This document shows, piece after piece, positions 20,213 through 63,224 of a DNA stretch of 64,000 nucleotides. The stretch's first letter is position 1; the number at the start of each line of letters is the position of its first letter. The DNA lies in the NCBI GenBank assembly GCA_045536935.1, contig JAZSOO010000027.1, positions 41,418 to 105,417 on the forward strand, read 5' to 3'. Origin of the DNA: Eubacteriales bacterium (GTDB lineage Bacteria; Bacillota; Clostridia; Oscillospirales; CAG-382). The position numbers were made by a program, and so were the translations under genes. The notes under the pieces were generated by a model, which was given only the letters and a program-made list of their open reading frames with translations, was not told the DNA's origin and made no database searches.

Positions 20213-22444
20213 ATGGAACACAATAATTGGAATGGTTTTAAAGGCGAACTTTGGAAGAACGAAATTAACGTTCGTGACTTCATTCAAAATAACTATGAAG
20301 AATATTGCGGTGACGATAGCTTTTTGGCAGAAGCAACCGAACGCACAAAAACTCTCTTTAAAAAGCTTCAATCTCTCTTTGCTTTGGAACGACAGTTTGG
20401 CGGTGTTTTGGATATTGATACCGATACGGTTTCATCTCTTACGGCTTATGCTCCCGGATATTTAGATAAAGAAAATGAATTGATCGTTGGTTTGCAAACC
20501 AACCGACCTTTGAAGAGAGGTCTTAATCCCTTCGGCGGTATGCGTATGATGCAGCAGGCTTGCGAAGCGTACGGCTATAAAGTTAGCCGTAAGGTCAAGG
20601 AAGAATTTACTTTCAGAACAACACACAACGACGGTGTTTTCAGAACCTACACGGATGAAATGCGTGCAGCTCGTAAATGTCACGTTATAACCGGACTTCC
20701 TGATGCTTACGGTCGAGGAAGACTTATCGGCGACTATCGCAGAGTTGCTCTTTACGGCGTAGACAGACTTATCGAAGAGAAGAAAAAGGATAAAGCCGAC
20801 CTCACAAATAAAACCTTCAATACAGAAGTAATTCGTATTGATGAAGAGCTTTATAAGCAGATAACCTTTTTGGGCTATATGAAGGATATGGCTCAAATGT
20901 ACGGTTACGATATAAGCGGACCTGCTTCTAATGCACGTGAGGCTATTCAATGGACCTATTTTGCATATCTTGCTGCCATTAAGGAACAGAACGGTGCCGC
21001 AATGTCTTTGGGCAGAGTCAGCACTTTCTTTGATATTTACATTCAACGTGACATCAATAACGGTATTATTACCGAAGTCGAAGCGCAGGAATTGATTGAC
21101 GATTTCGTTATGAAGCTTCGCATGGCACGCCATTTGCGTACCCCCGAATATAACGAGCTTTTCGGCGGCGATCCCATGTGGATCACAGAAGCAGTCGGCG
21201 GTATGGGTGATGACGGCAGAACTCTTGTTACAAAGAGCAGCTATAGAATTCTTAATACTCTCTATACTCTCGGTTCTTCTCCCGAACCCAATTTGACAGT
21301 TCTTTGGTCGACTTCCTTGCCTGAAAACTTCAAGAAATTCTGTGCAAAGGTTTCTATCGATACCGACTCTATTCAGTACGAAAACGATGACGTTATGCGT
21401 CCTCTTTATGGCGACGATTATGCTATCGCTTGCTGTGTTTCCGCAATGAAAATCGGCAAGCAGATGCAGTTCTTCGGTGCAAGATGTAATATGCCCAAGC
21501 TTCTTCTTATTGCGCTTAACGGCGGTTACGATACCACCTGCGGTATGCATATCGGACCTCAAATGCCCGTTCTCGATACTGAAAAGCTTGATTATTCGGA
21601 AGTTTCGGAAAGATTCGACATATATTTGAAATGGCTTTGCGCTTTGTACGTAAACACAATGAATATAATTCATTATATGCATGATAAATATGCGTACGAA
21701 AAGGTTCAAATGGCTCTCCACGATACCTATGCAGAGCGTTTTATGGCGTTTGGTATTGCAGGCTTGTCGGTTATGGCCGATTCTATGAGCGCTATCAAAT
21801 ATGCAAACGTTCGTCCTATCAAGAATGAAAACGGATATATAGTTGATTTTGAAACCACGGGCGAATTTCCGAAATTCGGTAACGATGATGACCGTGTTGA
21901 CTTGATTGCAAAAGAAATGTCGCACAAAATGATTACCGAATTGCGCAAAACACCCACATACAGAAATTCGACACATACTCTCTCTGTTCTTACTATCACC
22001 TCGAACGTTATGTATGGCAAGAATACCGGCGCAACACCCGACGGAAGAAAAGCATCTGCACCCTATGCACCCGGCGCAAACCCTATGCATAACCGCGAAG
22101 AGAACGGTGCACTTGCTTCGCTTAACTCGGTTGCAAAGATCGATTATAACGATTGCCGTGACGGTATTTCCAATACCTTCTCGATAACTCCCGATGCGCT
22201 CGGCAGAGACGATTCGGAACGTGTTGTAAACCTTGTTTCCATACTCGACGGCTATTTCGCAAAGAAGGCGCATCATATTAACGTTAACGTTATGACTCGT
22301 GAGCTTCTTATGAAGGCTTATGAAAACCCCGAGGATTATCCTAACCTTACAATCCGTGTTTCGGGCTATGCAGTTAACTTTAACAAGCTTTCCCGTGAAC
22401 AGCAACGTGAAGTTATAAGCCGAACCTTCCACGAAGCAATATGA
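20213..22444 (+). CDS. pflB: formate C-acetyltransferase (pyruvate formate-lyase)
   Basis: 743 aa with glycyl-radical motif TIRVSGYAV near the C-terminus and the active-site CC pair (IACCVSAMK). Confidence 0.97.
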
Positions 22445-23154
22445 ACGAAATAATCTACGGTAAAATTAATTCGATACAGAGCCTCGGTACCTTAGACGGT
22501 CCCGGGGTTCGCTTCGTTGTATTTACACAAGGCTGTAACCTTCGCTGCGGTTGCTGCCATAACCCCGATACTTGGAATATTTCTGAAGGAACAGAAGTTT
22601 CTTCGGAAGAAATTATAAAAAAAGCCGTTCGTTTTAAGGAATACTTCGGAAAAGACGGAGGTATCACCGTTTCGGGCGGTGAACCGCTGTTACAGCCAAA
22701 TTTTGTAAGTGACGTTTTTATAAAAGCACATAAAGAGGGAATTAATACCTGTCTTGATACCTCGGGAAGTATATTGAACGACGATATAAAAATACTTCTT
22801 GAAAATACCGACAGAGTTTTGCTTGATATAAAATATACTAACGACGATGACTACAAAAAATACGTTGGTTGCAGTATCGCAAAGCCTTTGGAGTTTCTTG
22901 AATATCTTAATTCAAAAGGAATCCCCACAACAATTCGTCAGGTTATAATTCCAAGTCTTAACGATAACGATGAAAATATCGCTGAATTAAACGAAATCAA
23001 GAACAAGTTTTCATGTATAGAGAAAATCGAACTCTTGGCATTTAAAAAGATCTGTAAAGTGAAATATGATAAGCTTGGACTCGAATTTCCGTTTGAAATC
23101 CATGCAGCACCTTCAACAGAGTTAATGAAGGAATTACAAGAAAAGCTAAAATAA
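22441..23154 (+). CDS. pflA: pyruvate formate-lyase activating enzyme
   Basis: Radical-SAM cluster [13 protein letters not shown] and [13 protein letters not shown]. Overlaps the pflB stop. Confidence 0.95.
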
Positions 23155-23186: not shown

Positions 23187-24074
23187 CGCAGTTTCTATCA
23201 TTTCAATTAATTTCGTAACTGCCGGTGTCAGCGGAATGTTTTTATGAGTACAAATACCTATGCTTCTTTTGGGCATATCAAAATCTGTTTTAAGCTTAAA
23301 AACGTTTATGTCTTCTAAATTTGAAGAATATTCTTCGGTAACACAAGCAATGCCAAGATTCTTGCTTGCGAAATCAAAAAGAAGGTCGTGCGAACCAAGT
23401 TCAAATTCGGGTTTTAATTTAATACCAAACGAGTTAAAAAAGTCATCTGTGACACGCCTTGTATTCGATTTAGGTTCGAGCATAACAAGCGGAAGGGAAG
23501 CTATGTCTTTTATGGAAAGAACTTTGTCTTTTAAATAAGAGTATTTGCTGCCTGCAATGAAAACTTCGTGAAGGTTTTCGATTTCACGGATAGAAATATC
23601 TTGATATTGGTTATCTTCAATAGGAAGATTGACAAATGCAACGTCGGTTTTACCTGCGCTTAATCTTTTGAGCGTTTCGCTTGTAACTCGATTTACTATC
23701 TCGATTTTAATATTGGGGTAGGTGTTGTGAAATCTTTCAAGAAAAGAGATAAGAAAGTGTCTTGTAAGAGTATCACCTGCACCGATTCGCAGGCTGCCTT
23801 CGTCAAGGGTTTTCATACGTTCAAAAAGACTTTCGGCATTCTCAATTTCGTCTAACGAACGCTTTGCGTAGCTATAAAGAAGTTCGCCGTGCGACGTTAG
23901 CTTTGCTCCCTTTCTGCCTCTTACAAAAAGTGCAATACCAAGCTCGTCTTCAAGAGAACGGATCTGTTGGCTTACTGCGCTTTGTGTTATAAAAAGACAC
24001 TTTGCGGCTTCGGAAAAGCTTCCGGCATCTGCGGCGACACAAAATATTTTGTATTGTTCGAGTTTAGTATTCAT
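23181..24074 (-). CDS. LysR-family transcriptional regulator
   Basis: 297 aa. N-terminal HTH (FSEAAKCLFITQSAVSQQIRSLEDELG) and a LysR substrate-binding domain. Confidence 0.9.
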   Translation of the reverse strand: MNTKLEQYKIFCVAADAGSFSEAAKCLFITQSAVSQQIRSLEDELGIALFVRGRKGAKLTSHGELLYSYAKRSLDEIENAESLFERMKTLDEGSLRIGAGDTLTRHFLISFLERFHNTYPNIKIEIVNRVTSETLKRLSAGKTDVAFVNLPIEDNQYQDISIREIENLHEVFIAGSKYSYLKDKVLSIKDIASLPLVMLEPKSNTRRVTDDFFNSFGIKLKPEFELGSHDLLFDFASKNLGIACVTEEYSSNLEDINVFKLKTDFDMPKRSIGICTHKNIPLTPAVTKLIEMIETAK

Positions 24075-24175
24075 AAGTATTCCTTATATATACCATTATT
24101 AATAATTGTTTGACTTATGCATGAGACTATAATATAATAGTTAAGTAAATTTGTCAATATATTTTGGAGGACAAA

Positions 24176-25369
24176 ATGGAAGAAAGACTTATTGGTACAA
24201 TTTCCCGTGGTGTTAGGGCTCCCATTATCAGACAGGGTGACGATATTGCCGCTATCGTTGCAGAAAGCGTACTTGCTGCCGCAGAGAGCGAAAACCTTGA
24301 AATTCGTGACCGTGACGTTGTTGCAGTTACAGAAGCTGTTGTTGCTCGTGCGCAGGGTAACTATGCTACCGTTGACCAAATTGCTGCAGACGTTCAGAAT
24401 AAATTCCCCGAAGGTACATTCGGTGTTATTTTCCCGATCCTTTCCCGTAACCGTTTTGCAATCTGCCTTAAGGGTATTGCACGAGGCGCAAAGAAAATCG
24501 TTCTTATGCTTTCCTATCCTTCCGACGAAGTCGGTAACCATTTGATAGATATTGATTCTCTTGATGCTGCAGGAATCAACCCTTGGACAGACGTTCTCAC
24601 CGAACAGAAATACCGTGAACTTTTCGGCATCGTAAAACATCCTTTTACGGGTGTTGACTATATTGAATATTACAGAGAACTTATCGAATCGCAGGATTGC
24701 GAAGTTGAAATCGTTCTCGCTAACGATTGCCGTAAGGTTCTTGACTATACCGATTCCGTTCTTACTTGCGATATTCATACCCGTGAACGTAGTAAGCGTC
24801 TTCTCCGTGCTGCAGGTGCAAAAAACGTTTTCGGTCTTGACGAAATCTTGAATAAATCGGTTAACGGTTCGGGTTACAACGAAAACTACGGTCTTCTCGG
24901 CAGTAACAAGGCTACCGAAGATTCTGTTAAGTTGTTCCCCCGTGACAGCCAGGTTGTTGTTGATAAAATAGCTTCGATTCTTAACGAAAAAACCGGCAAG
25001 AACGTTGAAGTTATGGTTTACGGCGACGGCGCATTCAAGGATCCCGTTGGAAAAATTTGGGAACTTGCAGACCCGGTTGTTTCTCCCGGTTTCACCAAAG
25101 GTCTTATCGGTCAGCCTAACGAAATCAAATTGAAATATCTTGCAGATAACGATTTTAAAGATCTTTCGGGTGATGCTCTTAAAGAAGCTATCAGCGACTA
25201 TATCCGCAAGAAGGATGATGACCTTGTCGGACAAATGGTTTCTCAGGGTACAACGCCCCGTAGATTGACCGACCTTATCGGTTCCTTGTGCGACCTCACT
25301 TCCGGTAGCGGTGATAAGGGTACTCCTATCGTTTGGATTCAGGGCTATTTTGATAACTATACCGCATAA
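24176..25369 (+). CDS. CofE-like (F420-0:gamma-glutamyl ligase family) protein, long form
   Basis: RGVRAPIIRQGDDIA...VAVTEAVVARAQGN resembles the CofE/FbiB ligase fold. Start set at ATG 24176 behind GGAGG (24166-24170). Confidence 0.65.
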   Translation: MEERLIGTISRGVRAPIIRQGDDIAAIVAESVLAAAESENLEIRDRDVVAVTEAVVARAQGNYATVDQIAADVQNKFPEGTFGVIFPILSRNRFAICLKGIARGAKKIVLMLSYPSDEVGNHLIDIDSLDAAGINPWTDVLTEQKYRELFGIVKHPFTGVDYIEYYRELIESQDCEVEIVLANDCRKVLDYTDSVLTCDIHTRERSKRLLRAAGAKNVFGLDEILNKSVNGSGYNENYGLLGSNKATEDSVKLFPRDSQVVVDKIASILNEKTGKNVEVMVYGDGAFKDPVGKIWELADPVVSPGFTKGLIGQPNEIKLKYLADNDFKDLSGDALKEAISDYIRKKDDDLVGQMVSQGTTPRRLTDLIGSLCDLTSGSGDKGTPIVWIQGYFDNYTA

Positions 25370-25375
25370 AATTTT

Positions 25376-25415
25376 AGAGCTGTTCAAGATGGTTGAACAG
25401 CTCTGTTTTATTTTT
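25376..25415 (+). terminator. rho-independent terminator
   Basis: AGAGCTGTTCAA-gatgg-TTGAACAGCTCT followed by GTTTTATTTTT. Confidence 0.75.
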
Positions 25416-27308: not shown

Positions 27309-29024
27309 TTGAAAGTACCAAAAATCAAAGGTAAATACAAAATGCCTGACAGCATTCGTGCTCTTATATGCGAAAGTGCTGAAAAATACGGTGATAAGAT
27401 TTTATACAAATATTATAATAACACTAATGAGATCGCAGAAATTTCTTATAAAAAGTTTTATGAGGATTTCAATTCGCTCGGAACGGCAATTTGTTCTTTA
27501 GGTCTGCAAAAGACTAAGATAGCGGTTCTCGGCGAAAACAGACCTGAATGGATCGCCGCCTATGCTTCTGTAATTAGCAGCGGTTCGATCATCGTTCCTC
27601 TTGATAAAGAGCTTTTGCCTTCTCAGATAGAAGCATTTCTCAATTATTCCGATGCGGAAGCGATCTTTTGCTCTTCCAAGTACGTTGAAAAAGTGTTGGA
27701 GATGAATGTTCCCAACATCAAATTTATAATCGACTTTGACGGAAACGGAAGCGACGATACTCGCTATCTTAGCTATCCTGAACTTATCGAAAAAGGAAAC
27801 GAACTTCTTGAAGAAGGCTATAATAAGTTCCTTCAGGCGAGATACGATTCTTCAAAGATGTGTGCATTGATCTTCACATCGGGTACGACGGGAACAAGCA
27901 AAGGTGTTATGCTCTCCGAAGATAATATTCTTGCAAGCATTACCGCTTCGTCGAATATGATAAACCTTCCCGAAGATACCGTTTTGATGAGCGTTCTTCC
28001 TATGCATCACACCTATGAATTGACCTGCGGTCAGCTTACGGCAATTCGTTTGGGTGTTACTATATGCATCAACAATAGCCTTAAATATTTGATGAAGAAC
28101 TTCAAGCTCTTCCGTCCGACGGCTATGGTTGTTGTTCCTCTGTACGTTTCGACTCTTAAAAAGAGAATTTCCGATGAGATAAGAAAACGCAATAAGGAAA
28201 ACGTCATCAACGTGGGTGTTAAGGCTACAAAGGCTCTCAGAAAGGTCGGTCTTGATACAAGAAGTCTTGTTTTCTCTGAAATACTTGCTTCTCTCGGCGG
28301 TAGATTGAAGGAAATCGTTTGCGGCGGCGCCGCAGCCGATCCCGAGGCTATTCAATGGTTTGAAAATATCGGCATTAACGTTTCTCAAGGCTACGGTATT
28401 ACCGAATGTTCTCCCCTTGTTGCAGTTAACCCGCTTGTTACCGTTCATTACGATTCAGTTGGTATCGCAATCCCCGGCAGTAAGATTAAGATTATTGCAG
28501 ACGAAGAGGACGGCGGAGAAGTTGATATGCCCAACGGCGAGATCGGCGAGATCTGCGTTAAGGGTCCTCACGTTATGATCGGCTATTATAAGGACGAAGA
28601 AGCAACAAAAGCTGTTTTCACCGAGGAAGGATATTTCCGTACAGGTGACTATGGTTATATGGACGATGACGGATTCCTTTATATTACCGGCAGAAAGAAG
28701 AATATAATTATTCTTGATAACGGTAAAAACGTTTATCCCGAAGAAATTGAAGAATATCTTGCAAAGATCGAATATATTAAAGAATGTGTCGTTATCGGCA
28801 GAGCAAACGAGAATGGCGAAGTTGTTATTACTGCGTTGATCTATCCCGATTATGATTTATTCAAGGGTTGCGAGGATTCCGAAATAATCAACAAAATGCG
28901 TTCCGAGGTTGCGAAGGTAAATAAGATACTTCCTACGTTCAAGCAGGTTCGCAATATCGAGCTTAAAAAGACAGAGTTCGAAAAAACAACAACTAAAAAA
29001 ATAATGAGATATAAACTCTCATAA
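27309..29024 (+). CDS. long-chain-fatty-acid--CoA/ACP ligase (FadD-like AMP-binding enzyme)
   Basis: 571 aa with FTSGTTGTSKGVMLS, YGITE, FRTGD and GRKKNIIIL. TTG start with an AAAGGAG RBS. Confidence 0.85.
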   Translation: MKVPKIKGKYKMPDSIRALICESAEKYGDKILYKYYNNTNEIAEISYKKFYEDFNSLGTAICSLGLQKTKIAVLGENRPEWIAAYASVISSGSIIVPLDKELLPSQIEAFLNYSDAEAIFCSSKYVEKVLEMNVPNIKFIIDFDGNGSDDTRYLSYPELIEKGNELLEEGYNKFLQARYDSSKMCALIFTSGTTGTSKGVMLSEDNILASITASSNMINLPEDTVLMSVLPMHHTYELTCGQLTAIRLGVTICINNSLKYLMKNFKLFRPTAMVVVPLYVSTLKKRISDEIRKRNKENVINVGVKATKALRKVGLDTRSLVFSEILASLGGRLKEIVCGGAAADPEAIQWFENIGINVSQGYGITECSPLVAVNPLVTVHYDSVGIAIPGSKIKIIADEEDGGEVDMPNGEIGEICVKGPHVMIGYYKDEEATKAVFTEEGYFRTGDYGYMDDDGFLYITGRKKNIIILDNGKNVYPEEIEEYLAKIEYIKECVVIGRANENGEVVITALIYPDYDLFKGCEDSEIINKMRSEVAKVNKILPTFKQVRNIELKKTEFEKTTTKKIMRYKLS

Positions 29025-29039
29025 AAGAAGAGGTACTTT

Positions 29040-29264
29040 ATGCTTTCCAAACTTAAAGAAATTCTTGTTGAAGAAATGGACATTTCCGCAGAACTTATTG
29101 TTCCCGAAGCAGAGCTTATGAATGACCTTGGTTTTAACTCTCTCGAGCTTGCAGACCTTGTTGTTCTCTGCGAAGAAAAATTCAACATAAGCTTCGATGA
29201 TAGCGTACTCCCGACACTTCTCACTGTCGGCGACGTTGTTGCTTATCTCGAACAGAACGCATAA
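29040..29264 (+). CDS. acyl carrier protein
   Basis: 74 aa. Phosphopantetheine-attachment helix LGFNSLELADLV, a variant of the DSL motif. Confidence 0.8.
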   Translation: MLSKLKEILVEEMDISAELIVPEAELMNDLGFNSLELADLVVLCEEKFNISFDDSVLPTLLTVGDVVAYLEQNA

Positions 29265-29347: not shown

Positions 29348-29350
29348 AAG

Positions 29351-29458
29351 ATGCTATTCGCTATATCGAAATGTACAATTAACCTCTCTGAGCTCGCTCA
29401 TTTGTGTGATTTTAGTAGAACTACGATATATAAATACATTTTTCTTTTGGAACAATAA
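29351..29458 (+). pseudogene. possible relic of a recombinase/excisionase-type HTH (35 codons)
   Basis: Translates to MLFAISKCTINLSELAHLCDFSRTTIYKYIFLLEQ*. The LSELAHLCDFSRTTIYKYI segment resembles the C-terminal HTH of small serine recombinases and excisionases. No RBS and no catalytic domain. Confidence 0.3.
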
Positions 29459-29490
29459 AATCGGGAACATTTTGTTCCCGATTTTATTGT
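29452..29490. terminator. perfect 18-bp palindrome, bidirectional terminator at the end of the islet operon
   Basis: ACAATAAAATCGGGAACA-ttt-TGTTCCCGATTTTATTGT with T-runs inside the arms on both strands. Lies 5 nt downstream of the 49-aa ORF stop. Confidence 0.75.
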
Positions 29491-29494
29491 AAAA

Positions 29495-29644
29495 TTAAAC
29501 ATTAAATGCCAAGATTAAAGAGACTAAGACTATTGCAAAAAAAGCAGCACCAAAAGGACGTATTTCTTTATTTTCATTTGGAATTAAACAAACGATAATG
29601 CCAACTATACATCCTATTAATACGAACAAATACCAAAAATCCAT
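29495..29644 (-). CDS. 49-aa two-TM membrane peptide (below the ORF-track threshold)
   Basis: MDFWYLFVLIGCIVGIIVCLIPNENKEIRPFGAAFFAIVLVSLILAFNV*. GGAGGTG RBS 7 nt upstream of the ATG. Lies 33 nt after the 565-aa gene and ahead of the terminator. Confidence 0.6.
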   Translation of the reverse strand: MDFWYLFVLIGCIVGIIVCLIPNENKEIRPFGAAFFAIVLVSLILAFNV

Positions 29645-29677
29645 AAAATTTCACCTCCATTTTATTTAAATTGAATT

Positions 29678-31375
29678 TTATTTTAATGCAACCATAAATC
29701 CTAAGGCATTCGTTAGTTCTGCATTTACCTTTGAATAGTACGCTGTAACAGCACTATTATGAGCAATAACAGCAGTATTCTTTGAAATGTTATGCAAATA
29801 AACATTCATATCAGTGGTGTTCTTATTAATTGTATCTAACGAAGAAACGGCTTTTTCCATTGTGCTGTTTAGAGTGCTTAATGAATTATCAATATCTCTC
29901 AATTTATTATATATCATAAATTGATTTTCTTTGATTTCGTCAAGCTTCGTGATAATGGTGTTTAATCTTATTTCGTTTTCATAGATGTTATATGCGCCAT
30001 TTATTCCCTCGAGGGTTTCGCATCTGCCGGACATTAGATATTCATAGAATGTTGAAAGTGCTACAATGTTTCTATACTTATCAAACACAATGTTATAACT
30101 ATATAATTCGTTTCTACACTTGAACAGTTCTTTCAATGTATCTTCAACTGTTTTAATCTCCGAATCTAATAAGTGTTTTTCACCAAGTGCTTTTGTAGGA
30201 ATGCTATTTATATTACTAAGTTTTGAACCTAATTTATTTTGCGACTCAATTAATTCAGATGCGTATCTTCCGATTTTATCACTCAGCTGTTTTACTTGTT
30301 CGGATCTTTGTCCTTCTGCGGCTATCCTGAGTTTTTCATTGTCTGCATCACACTGTTTGATGTCTGAATTGTATTTATCTATAGCTATTTCGTAGTCACG
30401 TAGTGTTTGTGCGTTTTCTGCCTCTACCTTTTTCTTGTTAAAGAAATATGGTGTTCTTAGATTTGGATATTCGGGTTTTGAAGGATATTCTTTTTTCTTG
30501 AAGTTAATTGGTTGATTTTCAAAATCAGATAACTCTTTTTTTGAATTTTTCAGGCGAGAACTTTTTGATTCTATATCTTGCCTTAAATCGTACAAAGCAT
30601 AATTGTGCTCGAATACAACATCTTTATTGTTATATATTTGTTGGAAATACAACTGTTCTAAACGTTTTGATAAGCACATTATATTTGATTCTAAATTTAT
30701 TATATTTAAGACATATTCTTTTAAAGTATTTGTTTCGATTTGATTATTTAAACAGTTATGCGTATGCGGTTTTATATCTACATTTTGAATAAAAGAGAAA
30801 ACATTTTCGTTTGCCTTTGATTTACTAAAATCAGCAATTTCCTTATGCATTGCATTAATTTTAAAATCATATAATTTGTTAGTATAATATGCTTCATCGT
30901 TAGACAATTCAGCGTTACATATCAGACACCGTTTAGTATTACAGACTTTGTCTATTTCCTTTAAAACATCTTTATTGTTTTTTTCATGTTCTTTTATCAA
31001 TGCTTCGATTTTATTATAAAACGCTTGGCTATAACAACCCGTTGTGTAATAGTTCCAATAACCATTTACGTATTCACATTGCTGAACATCATCATCAAAA
31101 ATATCTGCTCTATAACCACCTCTAGCAACTTTTTCTAGTTTGTTATAGATATCAAGATATTTCCATTCTCCATAAAGTTCCGCGCCGCAATTAGGACAAA
31201 TAAAGAATACAGATTTATCACGTTCATGGATATTGACGCTTCTCCGTTTTCTTGCTTCGTCGGAGATTTTCTTTATCGTGTGTTCAGGACAATTTACTTT
31301 AGGTACTTTTTTAAAGAATTCTTCGCGTAGCGTTTTATGATCGATATTTCCTAATTTATTTAACTGAAATCTCAT
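29678..31375 (-). CDS. 565-aa zinc-ribbon + long coiled-coil protein, unknown function
   Basis: AAAGGAG RBS 7 nt upstream. CPEH(29-32)...CPNC(60-63) and CNTKRCLIC cysteine clusters, then ~400 aa of K/E/N/L-rich heptad-like sequence. No Walker, nuclease or other catalytic motif recognised. Confidence 0.85.
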   Translation of the reverse strand: MRFQLNKLGNIDHKTLREEFFKKVPKVNCPEHTIKKISDEARKRRSVNIHERDKSVFFICPNCGAELYGEWKYLDIYNKLEKVARGGYRADIFDDDVQQCEYVNGYWNYYTTGCYSQAFYNKIEALIKEHEKNNKDVLKEIDKVCNTKRCLICNAELSNDEAYYTNKLYDFKINAMHKEIADFSKSKANENVFSFIQNVDIKPHTHNCLNNQIETNTLKEYVLNIINLESNIMCLSKRLEQLYFQQIYNNKDVVFEHNYALYDLRQDIESKSSRLKNSKKELSDFENQPINFKKKEYPSKPEYPNLRTPYFFNKKKVEAENAQTLRDYEIAIDKYNSDIKQCDADNEKLRIAAEGQRSEQVKQLSDKIGRYASELIESQNKLGSKLSNINSIPTKALGEKHLLDSEIKTVEDTLKELFKCRNELYSYNIVFDKYRNIVALSTFYEYLMSGRCETLEGINGAYNIYENEIRLNTIITKLDEIKENQFMIYNKLRDIDNSLSTLNSTMEKAVSSLDTINKNTTDMNVYLHNISKNTAVIAHNSAVTAYYSKVNAELTNALGFMVALK

Positions 31376-31757
31376 GATGCAGCTCCTTTATCATATTCAA
31401 AAAAACATCAATTTTTTCTTCGTTGAATACATATACTTTTTCTTTACCCCATCCCGAGAACTCTCTGTTCTTTTCAATATAGCTTATCCCGTTTTTGCTA
31501 GTAAAGATGTCGTTTATGTTAGCTGAAAAATAATTCAAATTTCTAGCTTTTTTGTCATGTAATACCCAGACAAAATATAATTGTAGTTCTTTAGAATACC
31601 CGATAATAAATAATTGTTCTTCTTTTCTTGCTAAATGGCTCGATCTGCATTTGATTCTGTTGTTTTTCAAATTAGCACTATAAACAAAATTGAAAACTCT
31701 TTCAAAGTCTATATTTGTATTATTACAATGCAATATAAAGTTTTTTGCGTAATCCAT
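31356..31757 (-). CDS. 133-aa protein of unknown function, first gene of the islet operon
   Basis: AAGGAG RBS 6 nt upstream. Its last 20 nt overlap the start of the 565-aa gene (translational coupling). No recognisable family. Confidence 0.8.
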   Translation of the reverse strand: MDYAKNFILHCNNTNIDFERVFNFVYSANLKNNRIKCRSSHLARKEEQLFIIGYSKELQLYFVWVLHDKKARNLNYFSANINDIFTSKNGISYIEKNREFSGWGKEKVYVFNEEKIDVFLNMIKELHHEISVK

Positions 31758-31780
31758 AAGTAACTCCTTAAAAAGTATTT

Positions 31781-31810
31781 AAAATGATAAATTGTGTCAT
31801 AAATCATTTT
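31781..31810. promoter_or_regulatory. candidate operator: inverted repeat AAAATGAT-N14-ATCATTTT
   Basis: 8-bp perfect arms lying between the predicted -10 and the RBS of the islet operon. An extra GTCAT half-site-like copy sits inside the spacer. Confidence 0.4.
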
Positions 31811-31818
31811 ATAAACCT

Positions 31819-31847
31819 ATAATAACATTTATAAAACTGCGTGTCAA
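31819..31847 (-). promoter_or_regulatory. sigma-A-type promoter of the islet operon
   Basis: The minus strand reads TTGACA (31847-31842), 17 nt ending TGT, TATTAT (31824-31819). Confidence 0.55.
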
Positions 31848-31920
31848 GCAAAAACACATAATTAAGAAGTGCATCATACCTTTTAAATACGATATACTGT
31901 AGAAAAAAGGAGTTAAAGTA

Positions 31921-32232
31921 ATGACAGCAGAATTTGTAAGAGATAGAATAACTCAGTTAAGAATCCAAAAGGGTGTATCTGAATATAAAATGAGCTATGA
32001 TTTAGGTCATAGCAGGGGATATATCAACAATATTTCTTCCGGCAAAGCTTTGCCCTCTCTTGCTGAATTTTTTGCTATTTGTGAATATTTTGGTATAACT
32101 CCTATTGAATTTTTTGATATTGATAACCATAATCCCAAAATGACAAAGGATACTTTAGAAGGTTTAAATAAATTGAAGGGTTCCGATTTGGAGCTTGTTC
32201 AGTTGTTAGTTGATCGTTTATATAGAGAATAA
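31921..32232 (+). CDS. XRE-family helix-turn-helix transcriptional regulator
   Basis: 103 aa. RITQLRIQKGVSEYKMSYDLGHSRGYINNISSGKALPSLAEFFAICEYFGITPIEFF is a typical HTH_3 domain. AAGGAG RBS. Divergent from the islet operon. Confidence 0.85.
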   Translation: MTAEFVRDRITQLRIQKGVSEYKMSYDLGHSRGYINNISSGKALPSLAEFFAICEYFGITPIEFFDIDNHNPKMTKDTLEGLNKLKGSDLELVQLLVDRLYRE

Positions 32233-32239
32233 GTTCTAT

Positions 32240-32263
32240 GAACACATAAAAAAGACACATCAT
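32240..32263 (+). repeat. right direct repeat of the islet
   Basis: GAACACATAAAAAAGACACATCAT. It overlaps the left arm of the terminator hairpin at 32253-32290. Confidence 0.8.
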
Positions 32264-32297
32264 TAAGGATTTCTCCAAAATGATGTGTCTGATTTTT
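32253..32297. terminator. bidirectional rho-independent terminator
   Basis: AGACACATCATT / AATGATGTGTCT 12-bp stem (inner GGA/TCC extends it). Followed by GATTTTTT on the plus strand and TTTTTATG on the minus strand. Confidence 0.8.
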
Positions 32298-32303
32298 TAT
32301 TAT

Positions 32304-32337
32304 GGGGTCCCCGCAAAACCGTGTGTTTTGTGGGGGG
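32304..32337. repeat. GGGGT-CCCC...GGGG hairpin element, copy 1
   Basis: GGGGT then CCCCGCAAAAC-cgtgt-GTTTTGTGGGG (11-bp stem, one G.U). Same architecture as 48711-48744. Confidence 0.45.
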
Positions 32338-32396
32338 TATAAAAAGTTTTTGCTAAGCTTTTTTCAAAAAGCGTATAAAACTCTCGTTAAAACTGC

Positions 32397-33395
32397 TTAT
32401 TTGCTTGCTTCTTCGATAGCAACTGCACATGCAACAGTCATACCAACCATGGGGTTGTTACCTGCGCCGATCAAGCCCATCATTTCTACGTGAGCAGGAA
32501 CGGAAGAGGAACCAGCGAACTGTGCGTCGGAGTGCATTCTACCCATGGTGTCGGTCATACCGTAAGAGGAAGGACCTGCAGCCATATTATCGGGGTGGAG
32601 AGTACGGCCGGTACCGCCGCCGGAAGCAACGGAGAAGTATTCTCTGCCGTTTTCAACACACCACTTCTTGTAGGTGCCTGCAACGGGATGCTGGAAGCGG
32701 GTGGGGTTGGTGGAGTTACCGGTGATGGAAACGCCAACCTTTTCAAGCTTCATGATAGCAACGCCTTCGGGAACGTTATCAGAGCCGTAGCACTTAACGT
32801 CTGCACGGGGACCCTTGGAGAAGGGAATTTCCTTAACAACCTTAACTTCTTCGGTGTAAGGATCAAATTCGGTTTCAACGTAGGTGAAGCCGTTGATACG
32901 GGAGATGATATATGCAGCGTCTTTACCAAGACCGTTAAGGATAACACGGAGAGCGTTCTTACGAACCTTGTTTGCGTTGAGAGCAATCTTGATTGCGCCT
33001 TCAGCGGCAGCGAAGGATTCGTGTCCTGCGAGGAAGCAGAAGCAGTCGGTTTCTTCGGAAAGAAGCATCTTACCGAGGTTACCGTGGCCAAGACCAACCT
33101 TACGGTTTTCTGCAACAGAGCCAGGGATACAGAAGGACTGGAGACCGATACCGATAGCAGCAGCAGCGTCAGCAGCCTTGGTGCAACCCTTCTTAATAGC
33201 TATAGCAGAACCAACGGTGTATGCCCAAACAGCGTTTTCAAAGCAGATGGGCTGGGTGCTGCGGATAATCTTATCAACGTCAATACCTTTAGCGAGAGTG
33301 ATTTCTTTGCACTCCTCGATGGAGGAAATGCCGTATTCTTTAAGAACAGCGTTGATTTTCTCAACACGTCTTTCGTAACCTTCAAACAATGACAT
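32397..33395 (-). CDS. GGGtGRT-family protein (uncharacterised)
   Basis: 332 aa containing the eponymous SGGGTGRT motif (FSVASGGGTGRTLHPDN). GC-rich and strongly codon-biased. Confidence 0.85.
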   Translation of the reverse strand: MSLFEGYERRVEKINAVLKEYGISSIEECKEITLAKGIDVDKIIRSTQPICFENAVWAYTVGSAIAIKKGCTKAADAAAAIGIGLQSFCIPGSVAENRKVGLGHGNLGKMLLSEETDCFCFLAGHESFAAAEGAIKIALNANKVRKNALRVILNGLGKDAAYIISRINGFTYVETEFDPYTEEVKVVKEIPFSKGPRADVKCYGSDNVPEGVAIMKLEKVGVSITGNSTNPTRFQHPVAGTYKKWCVENGREYFSVASGGGTGRTLHPDNMAAGPSSYGMTDTMGRMHSDAQFAGSSSVPAHVEMMGLIGAGNNPMVGMTVACAVAIEEASK

Positions 33396-33412
33396 GGTAT
33401 TTACCTCCTTAA

Positions 33413-34108
33413 TTATTCATGACGGGGGTCAATATATTTGACCGCATCTTCAAATCTGCCGTAAGTGCCGATAGACTGGTTGTATGCTTCGTTGGGTTCC
33501 ATACCTTTTTTGATGAAATCGGTCATCTTGCCGAGAGATACGAATTCGTAACCGATAACTTCATCGTTTTCGTCAAGAGCCATACGAGTGCAATAGCCTT
33601 CGGTCATTTCGAGGTAGCGAACACCCTTTGCTTTGGAACCGTACATGGTACCAACCATGGAACGGGAGCCTTTACCAAGGTCTTCCATACCTGCGCCGAT
33701 AACGAGACCGCCTTCAGAGAAAGCAGACTGAGAACGACCGTAAACGATCTGGAGGAAGAGTTCACGCATTGCTGTGTTGATAGCATCGCAAACAAGGTCG
33801 GTGTTGAGAGCTTCGAGAATGGTCTTGCCGGGGAGAATTTCAGCAGCCATAGCTGCGGAATGAGTCATACCGGAGCAACCGATGGTTTCTACGAGAGCTT
33901 CTTCGATAATGCCGTCTTTGACATTAAGAGAGAGCTTGCATGCGCCCTGCTGAGGAGCACACCAGCCCACACCGTGAGTGTAAGCGGAAATGTCTTTGAT
34001 TTCCTTTGCCTGAACCCATTTGCCTTCTTCGGGAATAGGAGCAGGACCGTGCTTCGGGCCTTTAGCCACAACGCACATGTTTTCAACTTCTTTTGAATAC
34101 TGCAACAT
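33413..34108 (-). CDS. NifU/IscU-like iron-sulfur scaffold-domain protein
   Basis: 231 aa. The N-terminal half resembles the NifU_N fold, with Cys residues at GWCAPQQGACK and IGCSGMTHSA. Confidence 0.7.
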   Translation of the reverse strand: MLQYSKEVENMCVVAKGPKHGPAPIPEEGKWVQAKEIKDISAYTHGVGWCAPQQGACKLSLNVKDGIIEEALVETIGCSGMTHSAAMAAEILPGKTILEALNTDLVCDAINTAMRELFLQIVYGRSQSAFSEGGLVIGAGMEDLGKGSRSMVGTMYGSKAKGVRYLEMTEGYCTRMALDENDEVIGYEFVSLGKMTDFIKKGMEPNEAYNQSIGTYGRFEDAVKYIDPRHE

Positions 34109-34144
34109 TGAAAAAATCCTTTCGCTTTGTCTTTGTATTTTTAT

Positions 34145-34720
34145 TTATTTTATAATTTCAGCATAAACTTCGCCGCTGCAACCTGCTGCGTTGGCTTCAT
34201 CGGTGTCGATATGTATTGCAGGAGCAAAATTAGGATTAACTCTGACAACAACATCACCGAAAACGAGGGAACGGTCTGCTGTGCAAATCTTTGCAGAAAC
34301 GATCTGCTTATCGGAAACACCAAGCTCTTCTGCAGTAGCAGGATCGAGATGCATATGTCTTTTTGCTGCAATTGCACCTTCGGTGATCTCAACTTCACCT
34401 GCAGGACCGACAAGCTTCAAAGCGCCGCTTCCTGCGATGTCACCCGATTCACGTACGGGAACGGATATGCCGAGTGCACGAGCGTCGGTAAGGGAGATTT
34501 CAACCTGTGTAGCAGGTCTTGTAGGACCAAGAATTAGAACGTTGTTGATTGCGCCCTTGGGACCAACCAAGTTGATTCTTTCGTTGCTCGCAAACTGACC
34601 GGGCTGAGAAAGCATTTTTTTGACAGTAAGAGTTTGGCCTTTGCCAAGCAAGGTTTCCATATCTGCTTCCGTAAGGTGAACGTGACGGGCAGACGTTTCG
34701 ACGAGTATTTTCTTTTCCAT
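34145..34720 (-). CDS. pduL: PduL-type phosphate acyltransferase
   Basis: 191 aa with the duplicated PduL signature SARHVHL ... AKRHMHL and HIDTDEANA. Confidence 0.85.
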   Translation of the reverse strand: MEKKILVETSARHVHLTEADMETLLGKGQTLTVKKMLSQPGQFASNERINLVGPKGAINNVLILGPTRPATQVEISLTDARALGISVPVRESGDIAGSGALKLVGPAGEVEITEGAIAAKRHMHLDPATAEELGVSDKQIVSAKICTADRSLVFGDVVVRVNPNFAPAIHIDTDEANAAGCSGEVYAEIIK

Positions 34721-34756
34721 TGGTTATATACTGCCTTTCTTTTATTTTATCAATTT

Positions 34757-34785
34757 ATTATATATCAAAACTTTCCTTTTGTAAA
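34757..34785 (-). promoter_or_regulatory. promoter of the pduL/NifU-like/GGGtGRT operon
   Basis: The minus strand reads TTTACA (34785-34780), 17 nt, TATAAT (34762-34757). Confidence 0.45.
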
Positions 34786-34871
34786 TGGTATTTTGCAAAA
34801 AATTGTGTTGAAATAGCAAATGTTGTGTGTTATAATACAACTTATTGAATGGATAATAGGAGAATTTTGCC

Positions 34872-36044
34872 ATGGAATATATTTTTTCAAATAAAGTTAG
34901 GGATATGAAGCCCTCTGCAATAAGAGAAATTTTCAAATCGCTTTCCGATCCCAACGTTATTTCTTTTGCTGCAGGTAACCCCTCTCCGCTGTCTTTTCCT
35001 GTTGAAAAGATGCATACTGTTGCTGAAGAGATTTTTCAAAATGAAGCCTCGTTTGCTTTTCAGTACGGCATAACCGAAGGTTATCCCCGTTTGAGAGAAC
35101 AGATTGCTTTACGACTCAAAGAAAGATTCAATACAGGCTCCGATAATGACGATGTAATTATTACAACCGGCGGACAGCAGGGTATTGACCTTTGTGCTAA
35201 GGTTCTTTGCAATGAAGGGGACGTTGTTATTTGTGAAAACCCAAGCTTTATCGGTGCGCTTAATGCATTCCGTTCTTATAACACAAAGCTTGTCGGCATT
35301 GATCTTGAAAACGACGGTATGAATATTGAAGCGCTTGAGAATGCTCTTAAGGCAAACCCGAACGCAAAGATGATATACGTTATTCCCACGTTCCAAAACC
35401 CTGCAGGTATTACAACCTCTTTGGAAAAGAGAAAAGCAATTCTTGAATTAGCAAAGAAATACGACGTTATAATACTTGAAGATAACCCGTACGGCGAACT
35501 TCGCTTCTCAGGCGAAGACGTTCCTACGATAAAGAGTCTTGATACCGAAGGCAGAGTTGTTTATTGCTCGTCTTTCTCAAAGATTCTTTCCGCAGGTATG
35601 CGTATCGGTTTTGTGTGCGGTCCGAAAGAATTGGTACAGAAGATCGTTGTCGTAAAACAGGTCAACGACGTTCACACAAACCTTTTCTTCCAGATGGTTG
35701 CATCTAAATTTATCGATAAATACGGGCTTGACGATCATATTGATTTCATCAAAGACCTTTACCGTCAAAAATGCAATTTGATGCTTTCAGAGCTTGATAA
35801 GCATATTGCAGGTAAAGCAGAATATACACGTCCCGAAGGCGGTTTGTTCATTTGGCTTACCGTTAAGGGCGGTGACGGCGACGATATTGCTAAAAAGGCA
35901 ATAGCTAATAAGCTTGCGGTTGTTACAGGTTCAAGCTTTAATCCGATTCAGGGCGGCTATTCTCCTTCGGTCAGACTTAATTATTCAACTCCGTCCGATG
36001 AACAGATCGTTGAAGGCGTAAAACGTCTTGCGAGCGTATTATAA
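34872..36044 (+). CDS. PLP-dependent aminotransferase, class I/II
   Basis: 390 aa with FAAGNPSP, NPAG and the PLP-lysine motif SFSKILSAGMRIG. Confidence 0.85.
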   Translation: MEYIFSNKVRDMKPSAIREIFKSLSDPNVISFAAGNPSPLSFPVEKMHTVAEEIFQNEASFAFQYGITEGYPRLREQIALRLKERFNTGSDNDDVIITTGGQQGIDLCAKVLCNEGDVVICENPSFIGALNAFRSYNTKLVGIDLENDGMNIEALENALKANPNAKMIYVIPTFQNPAGITTSLEKRKAILELAKKYDVIILEDNPYGELRFSGEDVPTIKSLDTEGRVVYCSSFSKILSAGMRIGFVCGPKELVQKIVVVKQVNDVHTNLFFQMVASKFIDKYGLDDHIDFIKDLYRQKCNLMLSELDKHIAGKAEYTRPEGGLFIWLTVKGGDGDDIAKKAIANKLAVVTGSSFNPIQGGYSPSVRLNYSTPSDEQIVEGVKRLASVL

Positions 36045-61974: not shown

Positions 61975-63096
61975 TTAGTGTGCGATGATCTGTTCGGTAT
62001 CTTTATCGAAGATGTGGATACGAGTTGTATCAACTGCAATCTTGATAGTGTCGCCTGCTCTTGCAGAGGACTGAGAAGATACTCTGGAAACGAGAGTTGT
62101 TTCTTCGCCAACCTTGAGGTAGAGATAAATTTCTGCACCCATAAGTTCGGTGAATTCAACCTGAGCTTCAATGATGGTGTCCTTGAATTTTTCCATGTAA
62201 ACGGGTTCGTCATGGAGAAGTTCGGGACGAAGACCTGCGATAACTTCTTTGCCTACATAATCAGCGAGGTTGTTATCTTCGAATTTTGCAGGATCAAGCT
62301 TGAAGGAAACATTTTCGAATTCGAGGAAGCAATCGTCCTGTCCCTTGGGCTTGGTGATCTTTGCATTTACGAAGTTCATCTGAGGAGTTCCGATGAAGCC
62401 TGCAACGAAAATGTTGCAAGGGAAGTCGTAAAGGTTCTGAGGAGTATCAACCTGTTGGATGATACCGTCCTTCATAACGACGATACGGGTAGCCATGGTC
62501 ATAGCTTCGACCTGGTCGTGGGTAACGTAGATGAAGGTTGTTTGGAGCTTCTGGTGAAGCTTTGTAAGCTCGGTTCTCATGGTAGCACGGAGCTTTGCGT
62601 CGAGGTTGGAAAGCGGTTCGTCAAGAAGGAATACCTTCGGTTCACGAACGATTGCACGACCGAGCGCAACACGCTGCTTCTGACCACCGGAGAGAGCCTT
62701 CGGCTTTCTGTCGAGAAGGTGAGTAATATCAAGAATTCTTGCAGCTTCTTCAACACGACGTTTGATTTCTTCTTTTCTTACTTTACGAAGCTTAAGACCG
62801 AATGCCATGTTGTCGAAAACAGACATGTGGGGATAAAGAGCGTAGTTCTGGAAAACCATCGCGATATCTCTGTCCTTAGGCGCAACGTCGTTAACTCTCT
62901 TGTTATCAATGAAGAGTTCGCCTTCGGTAATTTCTTCAAGACCTGCGATCATTCTAAGGGTGGTGGTTTTACCGCAACCAGAAGGACCAACGAAGATGAT
63001 GAATTCCTTATCCTTGATATCAAGGGTGAAATCGGATACAGCAGTTACACCGCCGGGATACCTTTTGTAAAGGTGTTTGAACAATACACTTGCCAT
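61975..63096 (-). CDS. msmX: sugar ABC-transporter ATP-binding protein (MsmX/MalK/UgpC type)
   Basis: 373 aa with Walker A GPSGCGKTT, signature LSGGQKQR, Walker B VFLLDEPLS and a C-terminal TOBE-like regulatory domain. Confidence 0.88.
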   Translation of the reverse strand: MASVLFKHLYKRYPGGVTAVSDFTLDIKDKEFIIFVGPSGCGKTTTLRMIAGLEEITEGELFIDNKRVNDVAPKDRDIAMVFQNYALYPHMSVFDNMAFGLKLRKVRKEEIKRRVEEAARILDITHLLDRKPKALSGGQKQRVALGRAIVREPKVFLLDEPLSNLDAKLRATMRTELTKLHQKLQTTFIYVTHDQVEAMTMATRIVVMKDGIIQQVDTPQNLYDFPCNIFVAGFIGTPQMNFVNAKITKPKGQDDCFLEFENVSFKLDPAKFEDNNLADYVGKEVIAGLRPELLHDEPVYMEKFKDTIIEAQVEFTELMGAEIYLYLKVGEETTLVSRVSSQSSARAGDTIKIAVDTTRIHIFDKDTEQIIAH

Positions 63097-63224
63097 TTGT
63101 AACCTCCATAATGAGTGTGTAACATCTCATTTTTATCAATACAATAATACCAAAAAAAGATAATAAATGTAAGTGTTTAATTATCCAAAAATTATATGCT
63201 GTGTTTATCTATTTTGCATAATAT

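Follow-up and report, generated by a model that had tools for sequence, protein, structure and literature searches.

The PduL phosphotransacylase of R. palustris is described down to its metal site, in which His48, His50, Glu109, His157, His159 and His204 of rPduL are the dimetal (zinc) ligands (PMC4784909), and an adjacent NifU-like/GGGtGRT gene pair, BT0173-74, is known from B. thetaiotaomicron, where it is repressed 11–12.8-fold in low iron and is listed beside hcp in the low-iron response (PMC10434189). In C. pasteurianum, iron excess raised the protein 7.1-fold, with hydrogenase-1 moving in parallel in the same table, and that study also reports PFOR as up-regulated under iron excess (PMC5395762). 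High in vivo expression of the pair has been documented (PMC11204068; PMC7035244), and transposon insertions in BT0173-4 come from the same B. thetaiotaomicron glucose-signalling screen as PfkA (bioRxiv 10.64898/2026.04.10.717545). Here we analyse a 64,000-nucleotide stretch of an Eubacteriales bacterium (GenBank assembly GCA_045536935.1, contig JAZSOO010000027.1, positions 41,418–105,417; hereafter the window), in which such a pair lies behind a pduL gene in one operon. The two-gene module, and not the three-gene cluster, is the conserved unit, and its products probably form a heteromeric iron-sulfur (Fe-S) protein. An earlier interpretation made from the DNA alone (the sequence-only reading) had called the GGGtGRT protein uncharacterised; papers of 2025–2026 still describe its function as unknown, and no assignment was found in the literature searched.

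Structure of the operon

The operon occupies the minus strand and comprises the following features, listed with the open reading frames (ORFs) antisense to it:

34757–34785, minus strand: sigma-70-type promoter, TTTACA-17 nt-TATAAT, matching 11/12 consensus positions
34145–34720, minus strand: pduL, PduL-type phosphate acyltransferase gene, 191 aa, identified by Pfam, NCBIfam and alignment to 5CUO
33413–34108, minus strand: NifU-like gene, 231 aa, directly 5' of the GGGtGRT gene in 75/75 loci
32397–33395, minus strand: GGGtGRT (PF14057) gene, 332 aa, full-length Pfam match
32247–32290, minus strand: intrinsic terminator, a 12-bp stem AGACACATCATT/AATGATGTGTCT followed by TTTTTT, from sequence and RNA fold
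32490–33392, 33419–34096 and 34191–34598, plus strand: antisense shadow ORFs, a by-product of codon usage and not genes

Gaps of 36 nt (pduL/NifU-like) and 17 nt (NifU-like/GGGtGRT) confirm the tight spacing described in the sequence-only reading, and the promoter that it proposed was located at 34785..34757. Its three gene identities also held (PTAC, E = 6e-75; NifU_N, 21.7 bits; PF14057, E = 7e-194), and the motifs SARHVHL, AKRHMHL and SGGGTGRT that it quoted are literally present in the translations. Ribosome-binding sites precede all three start codons, GAAAGG by 13 nt in pduL, GAAAGGA by 8 nt in the NifU-like gene and AAGGAGG by 8 nt in the GGGtGRT gene. The 3' region that includes the terminator (32235–32400) folds at −49.2 kcal/mol (z = −6.35), and no Rfam elements were found in 31500–35500. 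Promoter, pduL, NifU-like gene, GGGtGRT gene and terminator constitute a single transcription unit, and we regard this structure and the three gene identities as secure.

The conserved unit is a gene pair

Conservation of the operon was assessed by scanning one genome per GTDB species and keeping the 80 best loci, which came from Clostridia families, Alistipes, Bacteroidaceae, Kiritimatiellae, Treponema and Erysipelotrichales; the closest relatives of the window protein belong to Oscillospiraceae, Acutalibacteraceae and unclassified Clostridia metagenome-assembled genomes (MAGs). In tblastn searches with the window proteins, a NifU-like gene lay directly upstream of GGGtGRT in all 75 loci with enough upstream DNA, whereas PduL was found within ~6 kb of the pair in only 10/80. 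Nine of these ten loci fall with the window in a single subclade of a neighbour-joining tree of the concatenated pair, and all upstream-PduL cases are there; in locus L063, PduL lies downstream of the pair and represents an independent event. The conserved unit is therefore a two-gene NifU-like/GGGtGRT module rather than a three-gene pathway, and the PduL link is lineage-specific. The sequence-only reading, which had coupled PduL to both other proteins in one pathway, is not borne out on this point: synteny outside this genome extends across phyla for the pair, but for the trio only within its own lineage. Among 129 flanking genes classified with Pfam, PTAC ranked first with 5 members and no other family exceeded 4, the rest being generic (integrases, AraC regulators). 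PduL is thus the only enriched neighbour family, and a loose link of the pair to the acetyl-CoA/acetyl-phosphate node is possible.

In a close relative (89% identity; L001-6), the divergent neighbour encodes pyruvate kinase. Four relatives carry an SGNH/GDSL acyl-hydrolase gene between pduL and the NifU-like gene, giving a four-gene cluster:

L012, 4498–5166: SGNH/GDSL hydrolase insert
L036, 4608–5231: SGNH/GDSL hydrolase insert
L045, 1139–1903: SGNH/GDSL hydrolase insert
L060, 4603–5297: SGNH/GDSL hydrolase insert

We note that the pair tree departs from taxonomy at L050 (Kiritimatiellae), L076 (Treponema) and L080 (Bacteroidaceae): one Bacteroidaceae MAG, for example, branches as sister of Christensenella, and the Clostridia subclade that contains the window also takes in a Kiritimatiellae MAG. 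High identity to the Clostridia protein (75–89%) is likewise seen in L014 (Collinsella), L049 (Alistipes) and P0372 (Methanobacteriaceae). These cases could be horizontal transfer or MAG mis-binning.

The NifU-like protein departs from assembly scaffolds

The NifU-like protein matches Pfam NifU_N (PF01592) just under the cut-off (21.7 versus 22 bits), over 58 of 127 profile positions at residues ~57–114, and scores far below the NCBIfam cut-offs for NifU_clost (26 versus 188) and iscU (23 versus 192). Its IscU-like core spans residues ~50–110; for the C-terminal half (~115–231), sequence and profile searches of the PDB and Pfam scans returned no relatives. H45, C50, C57, C78 and C107 are invariant in 76 sequences. 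When aligned to IscU, C78 and C107 are in register, and the position of the first IscU cysteine is held by a glutamine flanked by C50 and C57. The sequence lacks the LPPVK chaperone-binding motif, and tblastn with IscS gave no cysteine desulfurase match at E < 1e-5 in the window or in ~100 loci with ~6–8 kb flanks. Assignment as a canonical IscU/NifU scaffold (PF01592, TIGR01999, TIGR03419) was accordingly rejected, having failed on score, on cysteine register and LPPVK, and on desulfurase pairing. Judged by its sequence, the protein appears to have an IscU-like fold without belonging to the assembly-scaffold family, and ligation by four cysteines suggests a stably bound cluster.

GGGtGRT is a highly conserved protein with a predicted Rossmann-like domain

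The GGGtGRT protein matches PF14057 over the whole profile (643.5 bits, E = 7e-194, positions 1–327 of 327). Identity across phyla is 75–91%, and clustering of a library at 50% identity leaves essentially two clusters that are full-length. Across 93 sequences the GGGTGRT loop (residues 259–265) is invariant, C202 is the sole invariant cysteine, and many invariant His, Arg, Lys, Asp, Glu and Gly residues lie mostly within residues ~254–318. A single-sequence AF2 prediction was unusable (pLDDT 38), and modelling was repeated with the 93-sequence alignment (pLDDT 89.2, pTM 0.90). This model consists of a helical bundle (7–112) and an alpha/beta domain of Rossmann-like type; strand 254–257 leads straight into the GGGTGRT loop, and confidence is lower at ~260–290. 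Foldseek against the PDB gave nothing significant (best E = 0.023, TM ≤ 0.28), and the partial matches were to Rossmann domains that bind nucleotides or phosphate. Searching the PDB by sequence and by profile gave no hits, and Pfam scans of sub-segments (E ≤ 10) recovered only PF14057. The window copy is an ordinary member of this catalogued family, its only local peculiarity being the joint operon with pduL.

Two possible origins of the protein were examined by profile comparison and rejected. A PFK-like origin, raised by MGR and GGxG motifs, Foldseek matches to PFK and the shared transposon screen, received an hhalign probability of 0.2% against PfkA, and an HCP/CODH-like origin received 0.7% against Hcp. 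A search for natural fusions (Rosetta-stone) was also discarded, as the longer GGGtGRT proteins are all metagenome assembly chimeras. Such chimeras in public metagenome sets (P0001-P0005, P0121, P0132, P0149, P0201) comprise internal duplications or joins to unrelated proteins such as ABC ATPase, Tex or SusD, and likely arise as the very conserved gene collapses in mixed-strain assembly.

A divergent clade links the pair to phosphoglycerate mutases

A divergent GGGtGRT clade (47–55% identity) was sampled at six distinct loci:

L087, 5997–10606: divergent-clade locus
L089, 2572–8580: divergent-clade locus
L091, 391–6859: divergent-clade locus
L093, 6006–10548: divergent-clade locus
L099, 842–6141: divergent-clade locus
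L101, 301–5405: divergent-clade locus

This clade keeps the NifU-like/GGGtGRT order, and the two genes overlap by 8–11 nt, which indicates translational coupling of the pair. The operons run ApgM, NifU-like, GGGtGRT, a membrane protein and a His_Phos_1 protein. ApgM and the His_Phos_1 protein occur in all six loci; in L087 and L099, the two loci tested, ApgM clears NCBIfam's equivalog threshold for phosphoglycerate mutase. The membrane protein (315–332 aa) has two predicted transmembrane segments and no Pfam match. One locus additionally encodes GpmI, and another a HAD phosphatase of the phosphoglycolate type. This context is the most consistent functional clue to the pair, and points to small phosphorylated acids rather than acyl-CoA. 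We also observed that an XRE-type regulator often adjoins the divergent-clade operon.

Composition, expression and regulation

The GC content of the three operon genes (0.48–0.50) is the highest among long ORFs in the window (others 0.31–0.46). Measured as effective number of codons (ENC), bias is strongest in GGGtGRT (32.3, the minimum of 52 window ORFs), and the NifU-like gene stands at 37.1; PduL (42.4) is no outlier, so strong codon bias is confined to the NifU-like and GGGtGRT genes. The sequence-only reading had described these last two genes as strongly biased and GC-rich and had taken this as a sign of high expression. Both observations were reproduced and the lowest ENC in the window upholds the deduction; the operon is probably highly expressed. 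The antisense frames that it reported opposite these two genes are likewise present (300 and 225 aa), with a third of 135 aa opposite pduL, and they stay open because TTA, CTA and TCA codons are so rare, about one per gene. The equivalent frame is also open in 24 homologous loci, which makes it a family trait and not a gene. Two further long ORFs of low ENC, 61978–63099 (plus strand) and 24074–25387 (minus strand), have no Pfam match, are rich in Phe, Asn, Val and Cys, and look like antisense shadows of strongly biased opposite-strand genes.

GC content of the pair exceeds that of its surroundings in 72/75 loci (median +6.6 points) and follows host GC (r = 0.88; range 0.35–0.66; 75 loci). Recent horizontal transfer as the source of the high GC was rejected on this correlation: the genes are residents under purifying selection, and the composition of the pair therefore reflects amino-acid content and translational selection. 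A GAAAGGAG ribosome-binding site is present in about half of the loci. Rex-operator-like sites (≤2 mismatches) lie upstream of the pair in 5/69 loci, compared with 1/362 GC-matched control windows; these are palindromes of the form TTGTTAAnnnnTTAACAA with 1–2 mismatches, 5' of the NifU-like gene in L079 (−122), L063 (−165), L066 (−34), L055 (−149) and L047 (−109). No Rex-like site was found upstream of pduL in the window, and Fur, PerR and cre operator motifs were not enriched upstream of the pair.

PduL is complete and lacks signs of encapsulation

PduL scores 251.4 bits against Pfam PTAC (PF06130; cut-off 25; profile positions 2–175 of 176) and 243.8 against NCBIfam PRK15070 (cut-off 209), and falls below the cut-off for the EutD_Gpos model (242 versus 315). 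It aligns with R. palustris PduL 5CUO across the whole core (147 bits), with all six dimetal ligands kept as H13, H15, E74, H122, H124 and H170. The protein begins 4 residues ahead of the conserved core and so has no N-terminal encapsulation peptide, and tblastn with PduA found no microcompartment shell genes (PF00936/PF03319) in the window or any of the loci. Neither the window nor any locus contains an acetate kinase or other acyl-kinase gene. By homology, pduL thus encodes a complete, non-microcompartment PduL phosphotransacylase, predicted to interconvert acyl-CoA plus Pi and acyl-phosphate plus CoA. The window also encodes a pyruvate formate-lyase (PFL; 20213..22441, 743 aa, with PFL-like and glycine-radical domains), and a role as housekeeping phosphotransacetylase is therefore the simplest inference for PduL, which probably acts in this way. 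After the PFL gene (window 20213–23151), where an activating enzyme would be expected, there is a 237-aa ORF.

Possible function of the pair

Tentatively, we favour a heteromeric Fe-S enzyme that acts on phosphorylated intermediates of lower glycolysis or of the acetyl-phosphate node. The NifU-like and GGGtGRT proteins would form a stoichiometric heteromer. Within it, the four invariant cysteines of the NifU-like subunit would keep an Fe-S cluster permanently bound, so that this subunit provides a redox or Lewis-acid centre and not an assembly scaffold, and the GGGtGRT subunit, with its helical bundle and Rossmann-like domain, would supply the substrate site. This site may be built from the glycine-rich, putatively anion-binding loops TGNSTNP and SGGGTGRT together with Cys202, and from the nearly invariant stretch of ~65 residues rich in His, Arg and Asp. 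The pair would be an abundant enzyme of fermentative central metabolism with a small phosphorylated acid as substrate, anywhere from phosphoglycerate via phosphoenolpyruvate and pyruvate to acetyl-phosphate, and would be repressed under iron scarcity because an iron-free route exists. PduL would serve as the cell's phosphotransacetylase downstream of the PFL encoded in the window, and the position of the module behind pduL in this lineage may serve to co-express it with the acetate/ATP branch.

The link to phosphorylated metabolites draws on the ApgM/His_Phos_1 clade, the pyruvate kinase neighbour, the rank of PduL as top neighbour and the screen shared with PfkA, and the placement between phosphoglycerate and acetyl-phosphate is the more doubtful part of the proposal. 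Several observations weigh against the proposal as a whole. Main-clade loci have no conserved metabolic neighbour beyond the minority PduL link, and the phosphoglycerate mutase link is limited to a small divergent clade, which could be a specialised paralogue. A phosphate-binding role for the GGGtGRT loops would be an analogy, with no detectable relative in sequence or fold, and coordination by four cysteines suits electron transfer as well as it suits catalysis. Mutants in BT0173-4 grow normally on glucose, and their signalling effect is only 2-fold (bioRxiv 10.64898/2026.04.10.717545).

Of the alternatives, a role in Fe-S biogenesis, transport or storage holds up best, and we consider it unlikely. 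Here the NifU-like protein would act as scaffold or carrier, with GGGtGRT as a partner that binds nucleotide; the two would provide either a route that needs no desulfurase and suits anaerobic habitats rich in sulfide, or an Fe-S/iron buffer. The IscU-like core with its invariant cysteines, the confinement of the pair to strict anaerobes, a glycine-rich loop that could bind nucleotide and an expression that drops in low iron, as for iron-storage proteins, all agree with this. Yet Fe-S assembly systems are usually induced, not repressed, by iron limitation, and abundance at the level of glycolytic enzymes would be unusual in a scaffold. The displaced first cysteine and the fourth invariant cysteine argue for a stable rather than a transferable cluster, and the sub-threshold scores against the Pfam and NCBIfam NifU/IscU models, the missing LPPVK motif and the lack of a desulfurase within ~6–8 kb in ~100 loci or in the 64-kb window also count against it.

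Somewhat less likely still is a redox, electron-transfer or stress-protection protein, for example a ferredoxin-linked NAD(P)H oxidoreductase or an O2/NO-detoxifying enzyme of a status comparable to hybrid-cluster protein or rubrerythrin. Rex is an NADH-sensing repressor, and the Rex-like sites upstream of the pair (5/69 loci against 1/362 controls) would fit such a role, but the signal is weak, confined to a minority of loci and absent upstream of the window pduL, and PerR and Fur boxes are not enriched. Four-cysteine clusters are typical electron carriers and a Rossmann-like domain could bind a dinucleotide; GGGtGRT, however, has no dinucleotide-binding GxGxxG fingerprint. The iron response runs parallel to that of hydrogenase-1, with PFOR also up, and the pair is listed alongside hcp, but the hhalign comparison with Hcp was negative (0.7%), and the phosphoglycerate mutase/phosphatase context of the divergent clade is left unexplained.

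The model of the sequence-only reading, a dedicated pathway in which the pair makes an acyl-CoA or acyl-phosphate that PduL processes, is the least probable of these: the trio shares an operon in the window and nine related loci, L063 has an independent downstream PduL, PduL is the only enriched neighbour family and an SGNH acyl-hydrolase gene joins the cluster in four loci, but PduL is missing from the vicinity in ~88% of sampled loci, among them every locus outside Clostridia, the upstream-PduL cases all belong to one subclade, PduL is far less codon-biased than the pair, no acyl-kinase gene occurs in the window or any locus, and the divergent-clade neighbours are phosphomutases and phosphatases, not CoA enzymes.

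Relative to that model, the present analysis narrows the functional unit from the trio to the pair, shows that the partner of GGGtGRT is not a canonical IscU scaffold and, through the divergent clade, connects the pair with phosphoglycerate mutases and phosphatases. The pair is among the most conserved (75–91% across phyla) and most abundant proteins of gut and rumen anaerobes and is strongly iron-responsive, and should it be a central-metabolism Fe-S enzyme, the way in which the carbon and iron economy of the gut microbiota is modelled would change. A bolder version of the Fe-S enzyme proposal, in which the pair is an enzyme of lower glycolysis in most saccharolytic gut anaerobes, employed while iron is abundant and replaced by iron-free enzymes when iron is scarce, seems improbable to us. 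Examples could be an Fe-S phosphoglycerate hydro-lyase, as an iron-dependent counterpart of enolase, or a ferredoxin-linked phosphoglycerate oxidoreductase; if this version were true, the fold of such an enzyme would have no solved relative.

Flanking features of the window

A promoter-like site on the plus strand (34808..34836, TTGAAA-17-TATAAT with a TG extension) stands back to back with the operon promoter. Downstream of it and divergent from the operon is a class I/II aminotransferase gene (390 aa; window 34808–36044), followed by trpS-like and gyrB/parE-like ORFs recognised by eye from their translations only. Just 3' of the operon, a low-GC island (window 29350–31900; GC 0.25–0.33 versus ~0.41 elsewhere) holds ORFs of 565 aa and 133 aa without Pfam match, followed by an XRE-type helix-turn-helix gene (31921..32232, plus strand), and may be a mobile or defence insertion. 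At window 27309–29264, an AMP-binding acyl-CoA ligase-like ORF (571 aa) precedes a 74-aa acyl-carrier-protein-like ORF, both again recognised by eye from translations only.

Comparison with described systems

The window PduL resembles R. palustris PduL (PDB 5CUO/5CUP; PF06130) in its duplicated RHxH motifs and six Zn ligands, and differs from metabolosome PduL/EutD in having no encapsulation peptide and no accompanying shell genes and in scoring below the Gram-positive EutD cut-off. The NifU-like protein resembles IscU/NifU scaffolds (PF01592; PDB 4EB5 chain C, 2KQK) over ~60 residues around GC(S/G)G plus the C-terminal cysteine, with E values of about 1e-4 to 1e-3. It differs from them in the displaced first cysteine, the invariant fourth cysteine, the lack of LPPVK, the sub-threshold score and an extra C-terminal domain of ~115 aa without homologues, and it is never found beside a desulfurase and always beside GGGtGRT. 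Fe-S hydro-lyases such as the class I fumarases FumA/B are abundant in anaerobes and switched off under iron limitation, and some have two subunits. Iron-repressed members with iron-free isozymes (FumA/B versus FumC; the two-subunit L-serine dehydratase) offer a functional analogy only: they use three cysteines and a free iron site, whereas the pair has four invariant cysteines, and no relationship of the pair to them was detected in sequence or fold. BT0173-BT0174 of B. thetaiotaomicron is the same adjacent NifU/GGGtGRT pair as in the window; transposon insertions in it modestly relieve glucose-dependent Cur inhibition, and the cited papers describe two genes only and do not mention PduL.

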